Below, one piece after another: positions 3,686 through 61,300 of a DNA stretch of 64,000 nucleotides (the stretch's first letter is position 1; each line of letters begins with the position of its first letter). The notes beneath the pieces were generated by a model, which saw nothing but the letters and a program-made list of their open reading frames with translations, made no database searches and was not told where the DNA came from. Source of the stretch: a virus; IMG/VR virus record IMGVR_UViG_3300047510_002509; one strand, written 5' to 3'. Both the position numbers and the translations under genes were made by a program.

Positions 3686-3919
3686 CTAGTCCACTGGCTT
3701 TAGATGATTTGGCTTTGGCTCTTCCTTCTTTTTTGTCTTAACTGAATCCCTAGATTCAACGTTTGCCTTGGCTCTAGCAAAAGCTTGAAAGAAGGTCTTA
3801 ACAAGTGCATAGAGCACCAGAAGGCAGAATCCAACAATTAACACGACTATCAATGAACCGATCAAAAACAGACCTAGTTCAAATGCCAGTTCGAATGGAG
3901 CTTTCCAATTGATATCCAT
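3686..3919 (-). CDS. Small membrane protein
   Basis: One long hydrophobic segment; RBS AAAGG. Confidence 0.65.
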   Translation of the reverse strand: MDINWKAPFELAFELGLFLIGSLIVVLIVGFCLLVLYALVKTFFQAFARAKANVESRDSVKTKKKEEPKPNHLKPVD

Positions 3920-3933
3920 AACTTACCTTTCTA

Positions 3934-4464
3934 TTAGCCTTTAGGTCTCATGACCACAAGGGCGCTGGGGAAGGGGGCTGCGTTGGTGGAATTACCAAAC
4001 TTCAGCCGTCCACGAATAAAACGAACTTCGTGGTGTATTGCATAGTCGTGAAACCAAGCAGTGTCAGTTCTTGCTGGCACTAGGCACACAACCGTGGCTC
4101 CTTTTTGAGATTCAGCGTCAGCCTTTCTCATCCAGTCCTTGATGGTCTTGCCATAAGGAGGATTGAGCCAAATAGCACCACCCTGAGCATCGGTAGTCCA
4201 GTCGCGTGTAAAAGCGTCTTGTCTATTCGTCTCTGGGTGGTCTGGTCCATACCAGTTGCCTACAACCAAAGTAGAAGACTGCAGGGCTGCTGCATCCAAA
4301 GCAAAGTTAAACTCTGCATCTACCTTGGCGTAATAACTTCTTGGCGTAGACCAAGTGTCATCAAGCGATGACATCGCTGTTGAGCTTGAATAAAAGCCCG
4401 TGCTCTTCTCGTAAGGTTCTACCACGCTGATATCATATAGTAACTTAATTCTAAATTGCAACAC
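3934..4464 (-). CDS. Phage DNA N6-adenine methyltransferase (Dam-like family); true start probably downstream of 4464
   Basis: W.TP, F.LDAAA, WLNPPYG, LVPARTDTAWFH, RFIRGRLKF, APFPS. Confidence 0.9.
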   Translation of the reverse strand: MLQFRIKLLYDISVVEPYEKSTGFYSSSTAMSSLDDTWSTPRSYYAKVDAEFNFALDAAALQSSTLVVGNWYGPDHPETNRQDAFTRDWTTDAQGGAIWLNPPYGKTIKDWMRKADAESQKGATVVCLVPARTDTAWFHDYAIHHEVRFIRGRLKFGNSTNAAPFPSALVVMRPKG

Positions 4465-33286: not shown

Positions 33287-33469
33287 ATGCCAATGACACC
33301 AGAGGAACTAGAAGCTCACGTAGCAACAGAGCTTGAACTTAAAGCCGAGATTGAGGCTTTGGTGGAACGGCTGCGTAACTCGGAGTACCGAACCAAAACT
33401 GAAAAAGCGTACTACGCAGACCTATTGGCTTCCAAGCGTCAGGAGCTCAGGGTTCACTTGGGCTTGTAG
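33287..33469 (+). CDS. Hypothetical coiled-coil protein
   Basis: 60-aa ORF following the holin. Confidence 0.55.
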   Translation: MPMTPEELEAHVATELELKAEIEALVERLRNSEYRTKTEKAYYADLLASKRQELRVHLGL

Positions 33470-33559
33470 GGGGTAAAAATTTCAGACAACGACCTCCAGC
33501 TTTTCAACGGCAAAAGCGAAGAAGAACCAAACGAACCGCTTATCGACACTCCTGTCGAC

Positions 33560-34474
33560 ATGCGGCCCGACCTGTCCGAATATGGTCTTATAGAACATGA
33601 CCGCGGCATCGTCGAAGATACCTATGAGAACCGCTCCCTCTTGCGAGCGCACTCTTTCCAGTGGGTACCCGTCTATACAGAGAACGGACATCCAACTGGG
33701 TTAATCGAGGCCCGCTCCCTTGAGCAGATGAAGGAACGGCGACTGATGTCGCTGTCCAGCAAAAGGGCCCTTCTCACTGAGCCACTTCAGAATAACTCCG
33801 ACTACTTGACGGGTCTGGATCTGGTTGTAGATTCCGAGGCCTGCAAACTTGTACCTCCTTGGGTACTCGGCGCGACCCGCGCCTATATAAAAGAGCAGGA
33901 AGATGGTGGCCCGCTAACGGCTCGGCGAGCGCCGAAAGCTCTACCCGCCCGCTGCCGTGCGTATACCTCTGAGGGTATCCGCTGTATGTTGTGGTCATCT
34001 GGACGTCTGAAAGATGACGGCTTGTGTCGCCTACACCTCGGCGCGAACAAGAAGACGGGCGCGGACATTGAACGGGCTCGCAAGAAGCTAATGCAATCCG
34101 CACCTTACGCTGTGGACAAACTTGAAGAACTTATGGAGAACGCTGTTTCTGAGCCAGTCAAGCTCAAGGCGGCAACGGAGATTCTCGACCGTGCTGGTAT
34201 TCGTGCTGGTATGGAAATTGATATCGGCGTGGAGCTTAAGGATGCTCGTACCCCCGCTGAGATTATCGCTGAACGGCTTGAGCGTCTGAAAGCTGGAGCG
34301 GTTGTGATTCAAGGCGAGCTCGTTGATCGAACTTCCACACAAGATGCGGAAGTTGTTCTGGAGCTGGATCAGGATCCCCCTAAAATTTTTACCCCCCAGG
34401 CTGAAGCGGCCTCGACATCGGAACAACTTGAAACACCAGCCATATCGGCGGAGGAGCTAGAGGAGCTACAGTGA
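33560..34474 (+). CDS. Terminase small subunit-like protein with Zn finger
   Basis: RC......G.RC...CRLH.G followed by AV..L..L...A.SE.VKL.AA.EILDRAG. Confidence 0.55.
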   Translation: MRPDLSEYGLIEHDRGIVEDTYENRSLLRAHSFQWVPVYTENGHPTGLIEARSLEQMKERRLMSLSSKRALLTEPLQNNSDYLTGLDLVVDSEACKLVPPWVLGATRAYIKEQEDGGPLTARRAPKALPARCRAYTSEGIRCMLWSSGRLKDDGLCRLHLGANKKTGADIERARKKLMQSAPYAVDKLEELMENAVSEPVKLKAATEILDRAGIRAGMEIDIGVELKDARTPAEIIAERLERLKAGAVVIQGELVDRTSTQDAEVVLELDQDPPKIFTPQAEAASTSEQLETPAISAEELEELQ

Positions 34475-37701: not shown

Positions 37702-37730
37702 TTGACAAATAGTCATAAATAAGTAATAAT
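37702..37730 (+). promoter_or_regulatory. Early promoter
   Basis: TTGACA-17-AATAAT. Confidence 0.7.
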
Positions 37731-37775
37731 AGTTTCATCCCGAAAGGGATTTCCAAAACGACGAAAAGAGGAAAA

Positions 37776-38498
37776 ATGCCAAACTGGGTATTCAATACTA
37801 TGTCTATCACAGGAAAAGAAGAAGACCTCAAGAAGTTTGTTGAGAAGGCGAAGAAGCCTCACAACACTTATTGGGAAGACTGGAAAACAAAAGAAATCAA
37901 AGAAGAAATCGACGACAGAGTTATTTCTTTTTGGAACTTCATCAAACCAGAAAACGAGCAACTTTATTTTGGGGCGAGCGATTACAAGCCAGAGGGTTAT
38001 GACCAACTGACTGATGCCGAGAAGATGGCTCTTTCAATGTCATTCAAATCAGATGGTTGGTATGACTGGAACATCCGCAACTGGGGAACTAAGTGGGATA
38101 CAAGCGACCCATACCTTGAAGACAACAGCAAGAAGGGCGAGGTTCAATACCAGTTCTCTACGGCTTGGAGTCCTGCCGAAGGTGCTTACCGAGCAATGGT
38201 TGAGCAACACCCAGAACTGACTTTTGATTTCCACTGTGAAGAAGAGCAAGGCTGGGGCGTGAAGTATGCTGGCGAGAGTGGCGAGTTGGTTGTAGTTGAA
38301 GAGTGGGACATCCCGAACAGCCACGCCGACTACAAAGAGCGTGATAACGAGGACGGATGTGTCTGCTCTTGGGATGCCGACGACCCCGAGAACTGGTATG
38401 ACGACTGCCCAAACAAGGCGGAGCAGGTAGCCAAGTTAGTTGAAGGCACGGAGGAAGTTGTTGCTAAGTTTGAAGACATCAGCGAGATGATTGTCTAA
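37776..38498 (+). CDS. DUF1281/YubB ferredoxin-like domain protein
   Basis: MPNW..N...I.G, GWYDWNIRNWGTKWD, F.TAWSP. Confidence 0.85.
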   Translation: MPNWVFNTMSITGKEEDLKKFVEKAKKPHNTYWEDWKTKEIKEEIDDRVISFWNFIKPENEQLYFGASDYKPEGYDQLTDAEKMALSMSFKSDGWYDWNIRNWGTKWDTSDPYLEDNSKKGEVQYQFSTAWSPAEGAYRAMVEQHPELTFDFHCEEEQGWGVKYAGESGELVVVEEWDIPNSHADYKERDNEDGCVCSWDADDPENWYDDCPNKAEQVAKLVEGTEEVVAKFEDISEMIV

Positions 38499-38589
38499 AG
38501 ACGGCACGGCGTGGGGTGGGGTAAAAAGCCCCACCCTCTGCCGACGGCAGGGTAGGATTGGATTTACAAACGGAAGGGTAAAAAACGGC

Positions 38590-38931
38590 ATGTCTAAAGA
38601 AGAAAACATTGTTGATGCGGAGCTCGTCGCAGGCGAGGATTTCGAGGTAAAAATTATCGATCCGCAGCCTATCGAGCGTAGCTTGCACTACTTCGCGCTT
38701 GACGGGAACTACGGTAACGCGAGTGGCATGCTCGTGCTAGAGACTACGTACTGGAGAGATGTCGACTGGGAGATTCTGGAGTCAGCATCTGATGACCAGC
38801 GCGCCAATGTCGCACGGTTGATTACTGAGTCATACGAGAAGCCTGAAGACATGACGGTGCTGTATGACAAGTTCGAGCAGTACGGTATTGACCTTGATGA
38901 TTTTATGCCGCGAGACCAGCTTGACAGCTAG
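38590..38931 (+). CDS. Acidic hypothetical protein
   Basis: Probable start MSKEENIV. Confidence 0.65.
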   Translation: MSKEENIVDAELVAGEDFEVKIIDPQPIERSLHYFALDGNYGNASGMLVLETTYWRDVDWEILESASDDQRANVARLITESYEKPEDMTVLYDKFEQYGIDLDDFMPRDQLDS

Positions 38932-39095
38932 GCCTCACGTAGGGTAAAAATATAGAACTGCCGCGGGTTTCTTCGTCGTTATCCCGTGTGCCACACCTGA
39001 GCATGTGTAAAAACTGCTCACTATCCTTTTCTGGCGAGCGCCGATGTCCCCCAAAGAGGGGACAGGAAATAAATCAAAAAGTTATTGCGTTCTAC

Positions 39096-39124
39096 TTGAC
39101 ACGATTGCAGGAAGATGCAATAAT
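39096..39124 (+). promoter_or_regulatory. Early promoter with TGCAGGAA box
   Basis: TTGACA cgat TGCAGGAA gatgc AATAAT. Confidence 0.8.
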
Positions 39125-39163
39125 TATCTCAATGCGAAAGCAGAAACGACGAAAGGAAAAATT

Positions 39164-39652
39164 ATGGGATACACCCACTACTATAAAAGAAGTCTTGATA
39201 GCAACGACCCAGAACTTTACGACAAGGTTCGTAAAGGTTTCACAGAGTTAGTAAAAAATGCCGAACTCAATGGCATTACAGTTGCAGATGCTTTTGGAGA
39301 AAAAGCTGGCGCATGGCAAGCAGATGGCGAGCGCATCGCTTTCAATGGTCTTGGAGAAGAGAGTTGCGAAACTTTTTCTTTCTCTCAGATTGTTCCACCT
39401 CAACCTCATTGGCGCGAAAACGAAAAAACTTTTTTCGATTTCACAAAGACTAATTATCGTCCATACGATGCTCTAGTCTGCGCGACCCTAATCCTTATCA
39501 AAGAGGTTTATGGTTCACAGGTTGAGATTTCCTCAGATGGTGGTTGGGACGATTGGGCAGATGGCTATGAACTTTACTTCTCAACCTTTAGAAACCCAAT
39601 GACACCTGAAAAACTTTTTGCCGAAGAACTTGCTTTTTTGGCAGGAAAGTAG
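39164..39652 (+). CDS. Conserved phage early protein
   Basis: ACGACGAAAGGA leader; MGYTHY, FNG, ETF, F.KT..RPYD, SSDG. Confidence 0.75.
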   Translation: MGYTHYYKRSLDSNDPELYDKVRKGFTELVKNAELNGITVADAFGEKAGAWQADGERIAFNGLGEESCETFSFSQIVPPQPHWRENEKTFFDFTKTNYRPYDALVCATLILIKEVYGSQVEISSDGGWDDWADGYELYFSTFRNPMTPEKLFAEELAFLAGK

Positions 39653-40152: not shown

Positions 40153-40177
40153 AGACGACGAAAGGACATAGGGAAAA

Positions 40178-41221
40178 ATGGAAAACACAAATCTTAGAGA
40201 GAGATACAACTCTCTCGGTGGTAGTAAAACTTTGTGGCAGATGGTTGAAGAAGTTGTTGCTCAGGCAGTATCTGAAACTTCAACAACAAATCTATCTGCA
40301 CAAGTTGTATCTGCGGGGCGTTATGTTGCTCGCGCTAGTGGCTCAGATAGAGCGCCACGAAAGTCAAAGCAAGTAATTTCCGTAGATAGCATGGAAGGTG
40401 AAGAGTCTTACGAAAGACCAAATGGCGAAATGTATTTTGGTCGCATGTGGGGCGAACACTCAGATGTGATGGCACTTCGCAAAGCGAGAGAAATGACTAT
40501 GAAGTCTTTCTCAGGTGAAGGTGGCTCTCCAATGTTTGCACTTATCTATGGCGCTCCGGGTTGCGGTAAAACTGCGATGGTTGAAGCCGCTTTTGGTGAT
40601 GATGTTGTCACACTCATTGGAACAGGTGACACCGAAGTTGCTGACATGGTTGGTGGTTATGTTCAAACTCCAAGTGGTGGTTTCGATTGGGTTGATGGTG
40701 GTTTAGTAGATGCCGCCGTCAATGGCAAAGTTTATTTCATTGACGAAATTGGTTTGATTGACCCAAAGGTTTTGTCACTTGCTTATGGTTTGATGGACGG
40801 ACGACGCGAGTTAGTTGTCACCGCAAATCCAGAGCGTGGCACTATCAAGGCTCACCCAAACTTCTATGTAGTTGCCGCGACTAACCCAAATGCTCCGGGA
40901 GTTCGTTTGTCTGAGGCGTTGCTATCTCGTTTCACTCTTCAAGTTGAAATGACAACAGATTGGGCGCTCGCAAAAAAGCTCGGAGTTCCAACTGCGATAG
41001 TTACTGCATCACAGAACCTTGCTAAGAAGCAAGTGTCTAATGAAGTTTCATGGTCTCCACAATTCCGTGAGTTGCTTGCTTTCCGAGATGTTGCGAAAAC
41101 TTTTGGCAATACTTTCGCTATCTCGAACCTACTTGCCTCTGCCCCCGAAATAGACAGACCTGTCGTTGCCGATGTGCTGACAAGGGCTTATGGGGAAGAG
41201 GTAAAGCCAGCGAAAATCTAA
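40178..41221 (+). CDS. MoxR/CbbQ/CobS-like AAA+ ATPase
   Basis: GAPGCGKT, FIDEI, AATNP, LSEALLSRF. Confidence 0.92.
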   Translation: MENTNLRERYNSLGGSKTLWQMVEEVVAQAVSETSTTNLSAQVVSAGRYVARASGSDRAPRKSKQVISVDSMEGEESYERPNGEMYFGRMWGEHSDVMALRKAREMTMKSFSGEGGSPMFALIYGAPGCGKTAMVEAAFGDDVVTLIGTGDTEVADMVGGYVQTPSGGFDWVDGGLVDAAVNGKVYFIDEIGLIDPKVLSLAYGLMDGRRELVVTANPERGTIKAHPNFYVVAATNPNAPGVRLSEALLSRFTLQVEMTTDWALAKKLGVPTAIVTASQNLAKKQVSNEVSWSPQFRELLAFRDVAKTFGNTFAISNLLASAPEIDRPVVADVLTRAYGEEVKPAKI

Positions 41222-41289
41222 CCCCTATGTCGGATTTTCGCTGAGGGGTAGGGGGCGCTTCATGGGTGTCGCGCCCCCCACTTCCCTAC

Positions 41290-58367: not shown

Positions 58368-61300
58368 TGGCTGCCAAGAGCAAAATACAAGTACCAGTTA
58401 TTTCTTATGAAGCGCAGAACCAGCGAATTATTGATGCTGGTCTTGAGCTAGTTAAAGAAGCAAACTCTAAGTTTTCTGGTTCTCGCATTGTTACTCGTAG
58501 AGCTGCTCTTGCTGTTCTAAACCGTTCTTTGACAAAGTATGAAGGTGAGTCTTACTCTCTTCGTCGTATTCGCTCCATCAAAGAGTTAAACAACTACATC
58601 CAACTTGCTCAATACAACAAAGTTTTCTTTGGAACTGTAGATAACACAGACCTACTTCCAATCTCCCACCCACGTTCTACTCGCAAGCATGAGTTGAGCA
58701 CTGCTGACCTTATGCGCCACCGCGCTCGCTGGATTGTTGACGACCCAAAGATTCAAGACGATGAGATTCGCTCTGTTCTAGCTTCTGCTCTAACTGCACA
58801 CCCAGCTACCGCTGAGTACGAGTATTCAATCGCTCGCTTGCAGTCACTGCCACAGGGCACAGTCCCTTCTTACGCACTTCTAGCAGCTCTAGGTGATGGA
58901 AACTCATCTGCTGCACGTCGCGCTCGTGCTTTGCTACAGCGTCGTGACCGTAAGGGTCGCTTTGCGTTCATGGGCGGTTCACTTCGTGCTTTGATTCGTA
59001 AAGCAAATGGTGTTGTTCAATCTCTAACTGGTAAGACTGTTGCTGCCGATGAGAACAGCGATACTTTTGACATTGAGTTGCCAAATGGTGACCTTGTTCG
59101 TGTCCCAGCCAAGTCTGCAGAAGGTGTCAAGGCAGTTCTTAAGTCTGCTCAAAATCCAGATGGATATAGCAAGACTCCTGCAAAGGTAAAAACTGGTGAC
59201 CCAGTTGTTGATGAAAAAGATTTAATTAAGCTCGATGCTCCTGCAGGATTTAGCAAGGATGAAAGCTGGTCTCCAAGCGAAGACGACCAGAAGTACTACG
59301 GAACCAAGATTGACCTTGGAACCAAGTACACAGATGATGCATACGACGTTATTAAAGTTTCTAGCCCTAACGCATTTGCTAAAGACCAATTCGAAGCAGC
59401 ACAACAGCGCGAAGGAGAAGGTCAGAACGTTGTTACAGAAGGACTTGGAAAGAATGGCTCACTAGACCCAAATCTTCCTGTCTACTTTGTATCTCGCCGT
59501 GGAGAGAACGAGAAGTTCCCGTTTGCTGCTGTACAGCGTTGGTCTGATGTTCAGGACTACATTGCACAGGATGAACCAAAGTTTGAGAAGAACGAACTAC
59601 CAGACCCATCAAAGATGCTTGATGAAGGTCAAGAAGCTTCTGAGCCACAAGCCCCAGAGGCAACACCTGCTGAAGGTCTTGAAGGCAAGTTAGTTCCTAA
59701 ATCTTCAAAGAAGAATTTGAAGAAAGACCAGAAGAAGTATCAAAAGGCTCTTAAGGATTATGAGAAGAGTGGTGGAACATTCCCACTCGACCCGACCAAA
59801 GACCACATGCTTCTTCCAGATGGCACAGTTGTTGACGCTGAGACTGGTGAGGTTGTTCGTAATGCAGATGGAACCTCTGCAAAAATTAAGCCTGGAACTG
59901 AAGCATCTGAAGTTCCTGCTGGCGCATACAAGATGGACGATGCTCCATACACACCACAGGGAGCCGATGCAGATGTAGAGTCTGCTGACTACACAGATGA
60001 CCCTGCTGAAATCGCACAAAAGTTTGATACTCCAGAAATTACTGATGCTTTGGAAAAAGCTGTTGATGGAGACGGAACTTCTCAGCTTCCATTTGAAGCA
60101 GGAGATGAGTCTGTACCTGCTGAGGCTCTAAGAGATGCTCTTGATGAAAAGGGCGAAGACTCTAAAAGCATTCTTGCAAAAATTTACGACAAGATTAAAA
60201 ACAAGCTTTCAGGTAAGAAAGAAGAAGCTACACCTGAAGTTCCTCAAGATGTTGTAGATGAATTAGGCAAAGACTTACCAGAGTCTCCAATGCCATCTGC
60301 TGATGCAGACCCAGCAAAATTGCCTGCACTGCTTGATGGATTGTCTGATGCAGAAAAAGACGAGTATGCCAAAACTGGCGATTACGCCAAGCATCTTCCA
60401 AAAAATAAAGATGATTTTGATTTGCCAGAAGGTTACGGCTTCCTAGACGCAGAGCCTTTTAACAAAGACCTATTCACACTTCCAGAGGATGCTCCAGAAG
60501 GATTTAATTTCGACCCAATCGATATTGCAAATAACTACGACACTGAAGCACTTAAGAAGGAGTTGCGTCGCGCTGTGGAACCAGGCGGCGATGGTTATGG
60601 AATTCTTTCTCAAGAGACTGATACTGGCGAAGATTACAATGGGTACGTTCCAGCAGAAGCGATTCGCGATGCGCTTCAACTACAAGGTGAAGACACTAAT
60701 TCTCTTCTTAATGACATTTACGAAGAAGGTATCGCTGGTCAAGAAGACCTAACCCCTGTAGAAATCAGTGACGCTCTGGAAGGAGAAGAACCTGAAACAT
60801 CCGAAGGAACACCAACCCCTGAGCAAGAAGCGCCTGCCGAAGCCCCGCAACAAGTTGCGACGGATGAAGCGGGACCCGAAACCGTTGCCAATATTGGAGA
60901 ACCAAGCGGACCTGCAATCGTTGAATCAAAAGCAGGAGATCTCAAACCAGGAGATATAACTGTTGGTGACAACTTTACGATTGAAAACGTATTTTCTGAT
61001 GAAGAGTCTGAGGCACTAAAACCGGGTTCAGTTTGGGTTGAGGGTTACTATCCAGGTCACGTCACACAAAAGACTAAATTGTGGAACGCAGACACAAACA
61101 TTTCTGTTTTCCGTAACGTCGAGCCTCCTGCAAAGGGAGACTTGCCAGAGCTGTCTAAGCCAAAGCCAAAAGAGTTTGACCCTGAAGGCAAGATTTACAA
61201 GGACAAGGTCCTTGGTGTTTTTGTTCCAAAAGATGGAGAAGCTCGCAGCAAGTTCCTCGATGCTCTAGACCAATACAACGCTCAGATGGCAGAGGCTAAA

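Follow-up and report, generated by a model that had tools for sequence, protein, structure and literature searches.

A hairpin on the plus strand of this phage DNA (38962-38988) displays in its loop an exact complement of the motif that lies directly before the Shine-Dalgarno (SD) sequences and start codons of a set of early genes. Its structure (an invariant loop on a covarying stem), its conservation, its complementarity to the motif (13 bases can pair), its presence as a single copy per genome and its co-occurrence with the motif support the proposal of the initial annotation that this region presents the antisense of a shared early leader, written ACGACGAAAGGA; the anti-SD element that formed part of the same proposal is not supported. 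The explanation that fits best, which we hold with modest confidence, is that the loop acts from a 3' untranslated region (UTR) and would pair with the shared leader sequence and ribosome-binding site (RBS), in cis, in trans, or both. Antisense pairing of a loop at an RBS and regulation from a 3' UTR are mechanisms of a known kind; what is new is the setting, in which the loop would be the cognate partner of a phage start-associated sequence.

Genomic setting, structure and conservation of hairpin 1

The window, i.e., the whole 64,000-nt stretch of DNA that was analysed, comprises bases 61687-125686 of a 136-kb IMG/VR virus record with a G+C content of 44%. Megablast against GenBank phages found no close relative of it. 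Judged by the portal protein, its nearest isolate is the uncultured freshwater Actinomycetia phage DSL-LC01 (74% identity), with more remote kin among Microbacterium and Arthrobacter phages; because of this kinship, the host is probably an actinobacterium. The hairpin cluster lies within a rightward block of small early genes with strong sigma-70-type promoters, each of which is followed by a short GAAA-loop hairpin, the sequence AACGACGAAAGGA and a start codon.

All features of the unit that contains the cluster are on the plus strand. Its sigma-70-type promoter (37702-37730; TTGACA-17-AATAAT, 11 of 12 matches) is followed directly by the leader hairpin ATCCC-GAAA-GGGAT (37737-37750) and by the motif AACGACGAA with its SD sequence (37757-37772), which precede the ATG at 37776. 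The first gene (37776-38498) encodes a 240-aa protein with a DUF1281_C-like domain (PF18406, E = 6e-6). The second (38590-38931) encodes a 113-aa protein of no known family, for which Pfam, PHROG and Atlas gave no lead and no RNA-binding family was matched; this gene abuts hairpin 1 upstream in most relatives. The interval from 38932 to 39095 is non-coding and ends at the next unit's promoter (39096-39124; TTGACA-17-AATAAT with TG, from the promoter scan), which has the same layout, including the GAAA hairpin TGC-GAAA-GCA downstream and AACGACGAAAGGA at 39145-39157 before the ATG at 39164. No terminator was found between the 113-aa gene and hairpin 1, and canonical terminators are located just 3' of hairpin 1 in relatives. 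We lean toward reading 38932-39095 as the 3' UTR of an early unit that starts at the 37702 promoter and comprises the genes for the 240-aa and 113-aa proteins.

Several other elements were observed in the early region. The polar motif GGGTAAAAA, often in the form TAG-GGGTAAAAA-TTTC, is strongly enriched on the plus strand between window positions 33470 and 51900 (e.g., at 33472, 35317, 36745, 38520, 38577, 38646, 38943, 43426, 46006, and 48012), where it is found after stop codons, in RBSs, within genes, before hairpin 1 and, in some cases, after terminators. The plus-strand copy at 38942-38950 has counterparts 4-20 nt 5' of hairpin 1 in most relatives. GGGTAAAAA was rejected as the promoter of a separate small RNA on account of this variable spacing to the stem, since transcription would begin inside the stem in some relatives. 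The sequence GGTAAAAA (38646-38653), in the 5' part of the 113-aa gene (codons E-V-K), is kept at homologous positions in L137, L139, L141, and L143, though nearby N-terminal residues vary. Between the 240-aa and 113-aa genes (38505-38560) are two conserved GC-rich hairpins, GGGGUGGGG-UAAAAA-GCCCCACCC, with GGGTAAAAA in its loop region, and CUGCCGACGGCAG; an Rfam hit to RAGATH-33 at this location is weak and at chance level (E = 3.4). Farther upstream, a 334-codon frame (33467-34474) is open straight from a TAG stop followed by GGGGGTAAAAATT; it is in frame with an upstream 61-aa ORF, and its first canonical start lies 30 codons in.

Hairpin 1 consists of a 6-bp stem formed by CGCGGG (38962-38967) and CCCGTG (38983-38988), which reaches 8 bp if a bulge is allowed (38960-38991), and a loop of 15 nt, TTTCTTCGTCGTTAT (38968-38982), with TTCGTCGTT at 38972-38980, just as initially described. 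Folded alone, it has a predicted energy of -11.3 kcal/mol with the loop open (z = -2.2). The 176-nt region as a whole folds no better than shuffled sequences on either strand (z = -1.3), and only single elements of the cluster stand out. Rfam gave no match at gathering score in the window and, at E ≤ 10 over 38400-39300, two chance-level hits located elsewhere than the cluster; no tRNA or tmRNA was found. The possibility that the reversed motif copy leads a minus-strand gene was rejected, as there is no start codon downstream.

Relatives of the region were gathered from viral and metagenome contigs via the neighbouring proteins. At least 13 different hairpin 1 stems occur among them, including TGCGCGGG/CCCGCGCA, TACGTGGG/CCCACGTA, TTCGGGAGG/CCTCCCGAA, TTCGGTAGG/CCTACCGAA, TTCGCGGGG/CCCCGCGAA, TCGCGGAG/CTCCGCGA, and TCGCCAGGGG/CTCCTGGCGA, and the loop core TTTCTTCGTCGTT is constant across these variants. 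Apart from one aberrant copy, the 13-nt core UUUCUUCGUCGUU is invariant, i.e., 13 of the 15 loop bases are fixed while the stem changes freely: seven of the eight stem pairs are altered on both sides yet remain paired (16 distinct relatives). When a covariance model derived from four close copies was used to align these 16 sequences over hairpin 1 and the adjoining pseudoknot, 95% of cells were paired, 9 of 14 pairs had changed on both sides, none of 500 shuffles equalled the observed pairing score and sliding the partner columns lowered pairing to 26-43%; such an alignment, being fitted to the structure, is somewhat favourable, and the compensations can also be seen on inspection of the raw sequences. 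Judged by these comparisons, the conservation of hairpin 1 exceeds chance. Its G-U pairs can form on the plus strand only, which suggests that the fold is selected in plus-sense RNA. The loop core is kept even where the adjacent 113-aa protein is merely 45-55% identical.

Protein-based scans for remoter relatives with a changed motif yielded 13 stem variants and a single loop variant. The latter, in L250, has the altered loop UUUCCCGUCGUU (TTTCCCGTCGTT) with a different possible fold, and is unmatched by any change in the leaders, which keep the usual motif. Loop and motif are otherwise invariant in all relatives found, and since neither varies across the family, covariation of loop and target, the most powerful test that comparison offers, is absent.

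The copy at 38972-38980 is the sole motif copy in the whole genome that is both anti-oriented to local transcription and non-coding, and each of the motif-rich genomes (G000, G005, G009, and G007) contains exactly one anti-oriented copy. The whole records behind five relatives were searched. G005, G009, and G007 contain five, three, and five copies of ACGACGAAAGG, respectively, and one anti-oriented hairpin copy each, the remaining reverse hits in these three being leaders of opposite-strand genes or coding sequence; G006 has neither ACGACGAAAGG nor the hairpin copy, and G008 has one copy of ACGACGAAAGG and no anti-oriented hairpin copy. This co-occurrence of loop and motif is suggestive, and not independent, because G006 and G008 are also the more distant relatives. 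In G007 the hairpin has been relocated behind the gene for an AAA-ATPase, a gene with a promoter of its own and with AAACGACGAA in its leader. There it has a different stem (GGTGCCGGGG/CCCCGGCACC), the same loop, a U-run after it and no pseudoknot, so that the loop sequence has survived the move.

The start-associated motif and its predicted pairing with the loop

The window contains 11 copies of the motif AACGACGAA where 0.34 would be expected, a 30-fold over-representation. Nine copies, eight on the plus strand and one on the minus strand, immediately precede an SD sequence and start codon (sites at 37757, 39145, 39675, 41359, 43274, 44299, and 48292 and, on the minus strand, 52200), and the start at 40155 carries an 8-mer of it. 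The initial annotation had found the complement of the loop in the leader of the unit's first gene (37757-37765) and in other early leaders, as is the case. The term leader is too narrow, though, as the motif also precedes internal operon genes that have no promoter (39675, 40155, and 43274), with fixed spacing to the SD sequence, and is on these grounds a start-associated sequence rather than just a promoter-proximal leader.

In the predicted duplex, the loop forms nine Watson-Crick pairs with AACGACGAA and, beyond one bulged A, the pairs G-C, G-U, A-U, and A-U. All 13 invariant loop bases can thereby pair with AACGACGAA(A)GGAA, that is, with motif plus SD, which would account for the conservation of the loop. 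Hairpin 1 in this respect has the hallmark of a base-pairing regulatory RNA, a conserved single-stranded seed complementary to the target RBS. For the nine motif-bearing starts, the predicted energies are -12.7 to -14.5 kcal/mol, and for one-mismatch variants of the motif -10.4 to -12.7 kcal/mol. The unit's own leader (37757), at -13.4 kcal/mol, is not the best target; the best value, -14.5 kcal/mol, is reached by others, among them the next unit's motif at 39145-39157. The pairing with starts that had been foreseen was thus recovered, with a restriction on its rank: in a genome-wide scan, the duplexes rank among the best 0.3-1% of windows without heading the list, and some G-rich coding stretches outscore the leaders through G-U pairs. 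Thermodynamics alone would therefore not single out the leaders; what speaks for the proposed pairing is that the 9-mer matches exactly, is conserved and lies where it does.

Protein-binding hairpins are likewise marked by an invariant loop of this kind on a covarying stem, and the 13-nt core might instead be the recognition site of a protein, for example the product of the 113-aa gene or a host factor that binds RNA, in which case the complementarity to the motif would have no role in pairing. We consider this unlikely, although more probable than the other alternatives. In nearly all relatives the 113-aa gene is the direct upstream neighbour, and yet its product has no match to RNA-binding families and in G007 the hairpin is separated from the homologue of this gene. 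The pairing energy is not outstanding genome-wide, and Cluster K mycobacteriophages keep start-associated sequences without an antisense loop (see below). Against this, a 9-nt perfect match of a given loop with the motif has an estimated chance of ~1e-4, and a perfect complement of that length, extendable to 13, of the genome's most over-represented start motif is an improbable coincidence.

For the preferred reading, pairing of the loop with the motif, the question is whether it would act on its own message or on others. The unit has the layout of icaR, with the motif before its first gene (37757) and, on the presumed transcript, no terminator ahead of hairpin 1; motif-led units without a terminator before the hairpin are likewise found in seven relatives and in the AAA unit of G007. 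A related arrangement occurs nearby, where a hairpin after the AAA-ATPase gene of the window (41205-41240) has the loop CCCUAUGUC, complementary to GACAUAGGG (40165-40173) between the SD and ATG of the same gene. This match between a 3' loop and its own RBS is kept in three relatives, even though their AAA start sites lack ACGACGAA; it favours self-regulation, as in icaR, and speaks for a tendency of 3' loops in this family to match sites within the unit that carries them. The complement of the AAA hairpin is gene-specific, unlike that of hairpin 1, which showed no specificity for its own leader: it is complementary to the shared motif, and other leaders outscore the one in its unit. A purely cis reading of hairpin 1 is disfavoured for these reasons, and also because there is one copy per genome against many motif-led units and because the loop was kept after moving to another unit. 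In G007, the homologue of the 113-aa gene belongs to a unit that is led by the motif and closes with a plain hairpin, in which nothing is complementary to the leader; this indicates that a cis lock is not a rule, and a strict own-leader rule was rejected on the basis of this small-gene unit. A second hairpin-plus-pseudoknot pair, in L254, was also set aside, its loop (CCCCCA) having no complement in its own leader.

An RBS extension that is shared among genes and unmatched to 16S rRNA calls for a common reader, and the loop of hairpin 1 is a candidate for that role. That the loop pairs with the motif seems to us, by a slight preponderance, the probable case when both modes are taken together, and this probability is divided roughly evenly between cis and trans.

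The gene-end pseudoknot and the remainder of the cluster

Of the further hairpins that had been noted after hairpin 1, two were recovered (hairpins 3 and 4), and the segment 38998-39020 proved to belong instead to a pseudoknot of a widespread phage gene-end family (38993-39020, plus strand), recognized from pattern scans and covariation. Stem S1 pairs ACAC (38993-38996) with GUGU (39005-39008), stem S2 pairs UGAGCA (38998-39003) with UGCUCA (39015-39020) and the A-rich loop AAAAAC spans 39009-39014. The window copy follows the family pattern, CCUGAGCA, then G plus 3-5 nt, then AAAC UGCUCA, with the 5' flank pairing to the loop. Positions 38998-39020 match SIO1-like roseophages at 93-97% over 29 nt, where the element follows the ribonucleotide reductase gene, and pattern scans found it in further viral contigs and at 67 places in genome contigs of bacteria and archaea that belong to many phyla, against an estimated ~4 by chance. 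Covariation links the 3-5 bases preceding CCUGAGCA to the loop bases that come after the G (e.g., GAC/GUC, ACAC/GUGU, CCAC/GUGG, CUAC/GUAG, AAAC/GUUU, CGAAC/GUUCG, and CAAC/GUUG); among 66 distinct copies, flank-loop pairing is 89% and 64% vs. 57% and 38% after shuffling. This covariation identifies the element as an H-type pseudoknot with an A-rich third loop. As a rule it begins 7-20 nt past a stop codon; it is present as a single copy in this genome, is spread across a great many phages and prophages that are not related to one another and is not in Rfam (gathering score in the window; E ≤ 10 over 38400-39300).

Three broader readings of the pseudoknot were rejected: as a general terminator, with a T-run within 12 nt in only 26% of copies; as the mark of a neighbour-gene family, with flanking genes that are diverse and mutually unrelated; and as a companion of PhoH, which is absent from this genome. 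The pseudoknot recurs as CRISPR spacers in Candidatus Tepidiaquacella proteinivora (L233, L240; CP054675) and Poribacteria (L241; OX639973), flanked by the repeats GTCTCAATTCCACTATGGTTCAATTCAAAT and GTTTCGATTCCATACTGGTTCGATTAAAAG, suggesting that hosts target this conserved phage element. One virus record (L128, IMGVR_UViG_3300032334_000379) contains four copies within 4.3 kb (487-540, 1776-1811, 3700-3753, and 4264-4312) with compensatory stem changes (UAAGCA/UGCUUA, UAGGCA/UGCCUA); one of the four lies 3 nt before a tRNA gene and one right at the start site of a TATAAT promoter.

Downstream of the pseudoknot is TCCTTTTC (39024-39031, plus strand), which the initial annotation had read as an anti-SD sequence in a hairpin. 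It is a single-stranded U-rich linker that relatives do not keep, other U-rich sequences taking its place and a T-run occurring in several, and it is probably a terminator tail. Hairpins 3 (GGCG-AG-CGCC; 39033-39042) and 4 (TGTCCCC-CAAAGA-GGGGACA; 39045-39064), both on the plus strand, are of terminator type. The stem of hairpin 3 is followed by TTTTT in relatives, where it forms an intrinsic terminator, and the window copy lacks a U-run; hairpin 4 is kept in close relatives and has no U-run.

Hairpin 1 shares this gene-end site with the pseudoknot and the terminator hairpins, and its G007 copy, with its U-run, could itself terminate transcription. Hairpin 1 may on that account be a mere 3'-end stability or termination hairpin with a loop constrained by folding or termination, an alternative to which we give little credence. 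The loops of terminators are normally short and free to vary, unlike a loop in which 13 of 15 bases are invariant while the stem varies freely. The window's hairpin 1, moreover, is followed by GUGCCACACC and not by the U-run of an intrinsic terminator, and it is absent from the list produced by the terminator scan of the window.

Finally, the shared 9-mer could be a double-stranded DNA site of a phage regulator, similar to the asymmetric, polar stoperator-type sites known in Cluster A mycobacteriophages (mentioned in PMC3203893), with the hairpin copy as a reversed site identical to the leader copies as duplex DNA, but this is very improbable given that the motif is fused to the SD sequence at fixed spacing even at internal operon genes without promoters, and that compensatory stem changes and strand-specific G-U pairs point to selection on a single-stranded fold.

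Proposed mechanism and comparison with known systems

In the favoured mechanism, the stem of hairpin 1 would hold the 13-nt UUUCUUCGUCGUU single-stranded in the 3' tail of an early message, which would continue with the gene-end pseudoknot and close with a U-rich tract and terminator-type hairpins. The loop would pair with AACGACGAA(A)GGAA just before about ten early start codons, and pairing across the SD sequence would block the ribosome and perhaps create a nuclease substrate. In cis, the loop may act on the first gene of its own message. In trans, a stable 3' fragment protected by the pseudoknot and terminator, such as the ~100-nt RNA conjectured in the initial annotation, may reach all motif-bearing early messages, which would make it an RNA analogue of the translational repressors that turn early genes off. 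We infer transcription through the site, any processing of the RNA, pairing in vivo and the effect of that pairing. The boldest form of the proposal, in which one RNA loop in the tail of an early message, stabilised by the pseudoknot, is the master translational repressor of all motif-marked genes, is possible and distinctly speculative. If it were true, such a loop would be the RNA equivalent of T4 RegA and would explain why the motifs reach beyond the SD sequence; phages would have an RNA-based route for switching off a whole class of early genes, and phage 3' tails would carry regulators and not terminators only.

CpxQ and SroC are small RNAs derived from 3' UTRs, and CopA/CopT exemplifies pairing through loops. 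The phage element resembles them in that a conserved seed is single-stranded beside a stable 3' structure, the predicted targets are RBSs and one regulator would serve many targets; the loop of hairpin 1 also holds a YUNR-type UUCG turn, as in RNAs of the CopA/CopT type. Unlike CpxQ and SroC, the phage RNA is predicted from sequence, its likely actinobacterial host is not expected to have an Hfq-type chaperone and its putative regulon is set by a phage-specific start-associated sequence. The T4 translational repressor RegA and the nuclease RegB are proteins that shut off many early messages through their ribosome-binding regions. Here, too, many early messages would be affected at once at the RBS, with the difference that the proposed agent is an RNA loop.

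In the icaR mRNA of Staphylococcus aureus, an anti-SD sequence in the 3' UTR pairs with the RBS, blocks initiation and creates a substrate for RNase III (PMC3868564). The phage element likewise places an anti-SD sequence in a 3' tail, complementary to a ribosome-binding region. It differs in that icaR is a single host gene with the C-rich sequence UCCCCUG, whereas the phage complement matches the motif of about ten genes, is displayed in a large hairpin loop and pairs by prediction from sequence. The pseudoknot, by itself, is reminiscent of coremin/xrRNA_C, a compact gene-end or UTR element with a short stem followed by N-UAAAC, but the resemblance is loose: coremin has a YGAD or YGNNAD loop in its first hairpin, a spacer of 8-10 nt and a required second hairpin, whereas the phage element lacks a YGAD-type loop, its 8-9-nt "loop" forms a second helix and its N-UAAAC stretch is the sole part that recalls the coremin spacer (PMC10520033).

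The closest parallel is found in Cluster K mycobacteriophages, which contain 13-nt start-associated sequences (SAS) and, in each of four K1 genomes, a single reversed copy that was left unexplained (PMC3203893). As late as 2024 and 2025, publications describe SAS as being of unknown role and mention no antisense hairpin (PMC11373665, PMC12699233). The reversed SAS was located at 58682-58694 in Adephagia and likewise in Anaya and CrimD. It coincides with a 10-nt loop, CCUCCUAUCC, of a long hairpin in the gap between gp92 and gp93, on the transcribed strand; the hairpin stretch (L273 38620-38730, corresponding to 58619-58729 of Mycobacterium phage Adephagia) is common to 131 phage records. The anti-SAS loop is kept in seven of nine sampled phages. 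Ekdilam has an anti-SD version only, SirPhilip has an unrelated loop together with 15 SAS, and Pixie and TM4 have no anti-SAS loop. A universal coupling of SAS and anti-SAS in Cluster K is contradicted by these four phages and was rejected. SirPhilip, Pixie, and TM4 have 10-18 start-associated sequences and no anti-oriented loop, from which it appears that such motifs can work without an antisense partner. As judged from these genomes, the K1 parallel is real but the coupling is evidently not obligatory.

The two systems share an asymmetric ~13-nt motif that includes the SD sequence and lies directly before start codons, is confined to non-structural genes and occurs in a single orientation, and in K1 there is also a single reversed copy in a loop. 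They differ in sequence (GGGATAGGAGCCC there vs. AACGACGAAAGGA here) and in the position of the hairpin, which in Cluster K comes after a terminator and not at a gene end; the phages are unrelated, and the shared architecture is no more than an analogy. A motif of the same design combined with a single conserved loop that is its exact complement suggests that the reader of a start-associated sequence can be RNA. Start-associated sequences of actinobacteriophages have been without a known reader since 2011 (PMC3203893), and the SAS of Cluster K1 would, if the proposal is true, gain a testable RNA partner. Because K1 phages grow on Mycobacterium smegmatis and can be engineered, the idea of an RNA reader is directly testable there.
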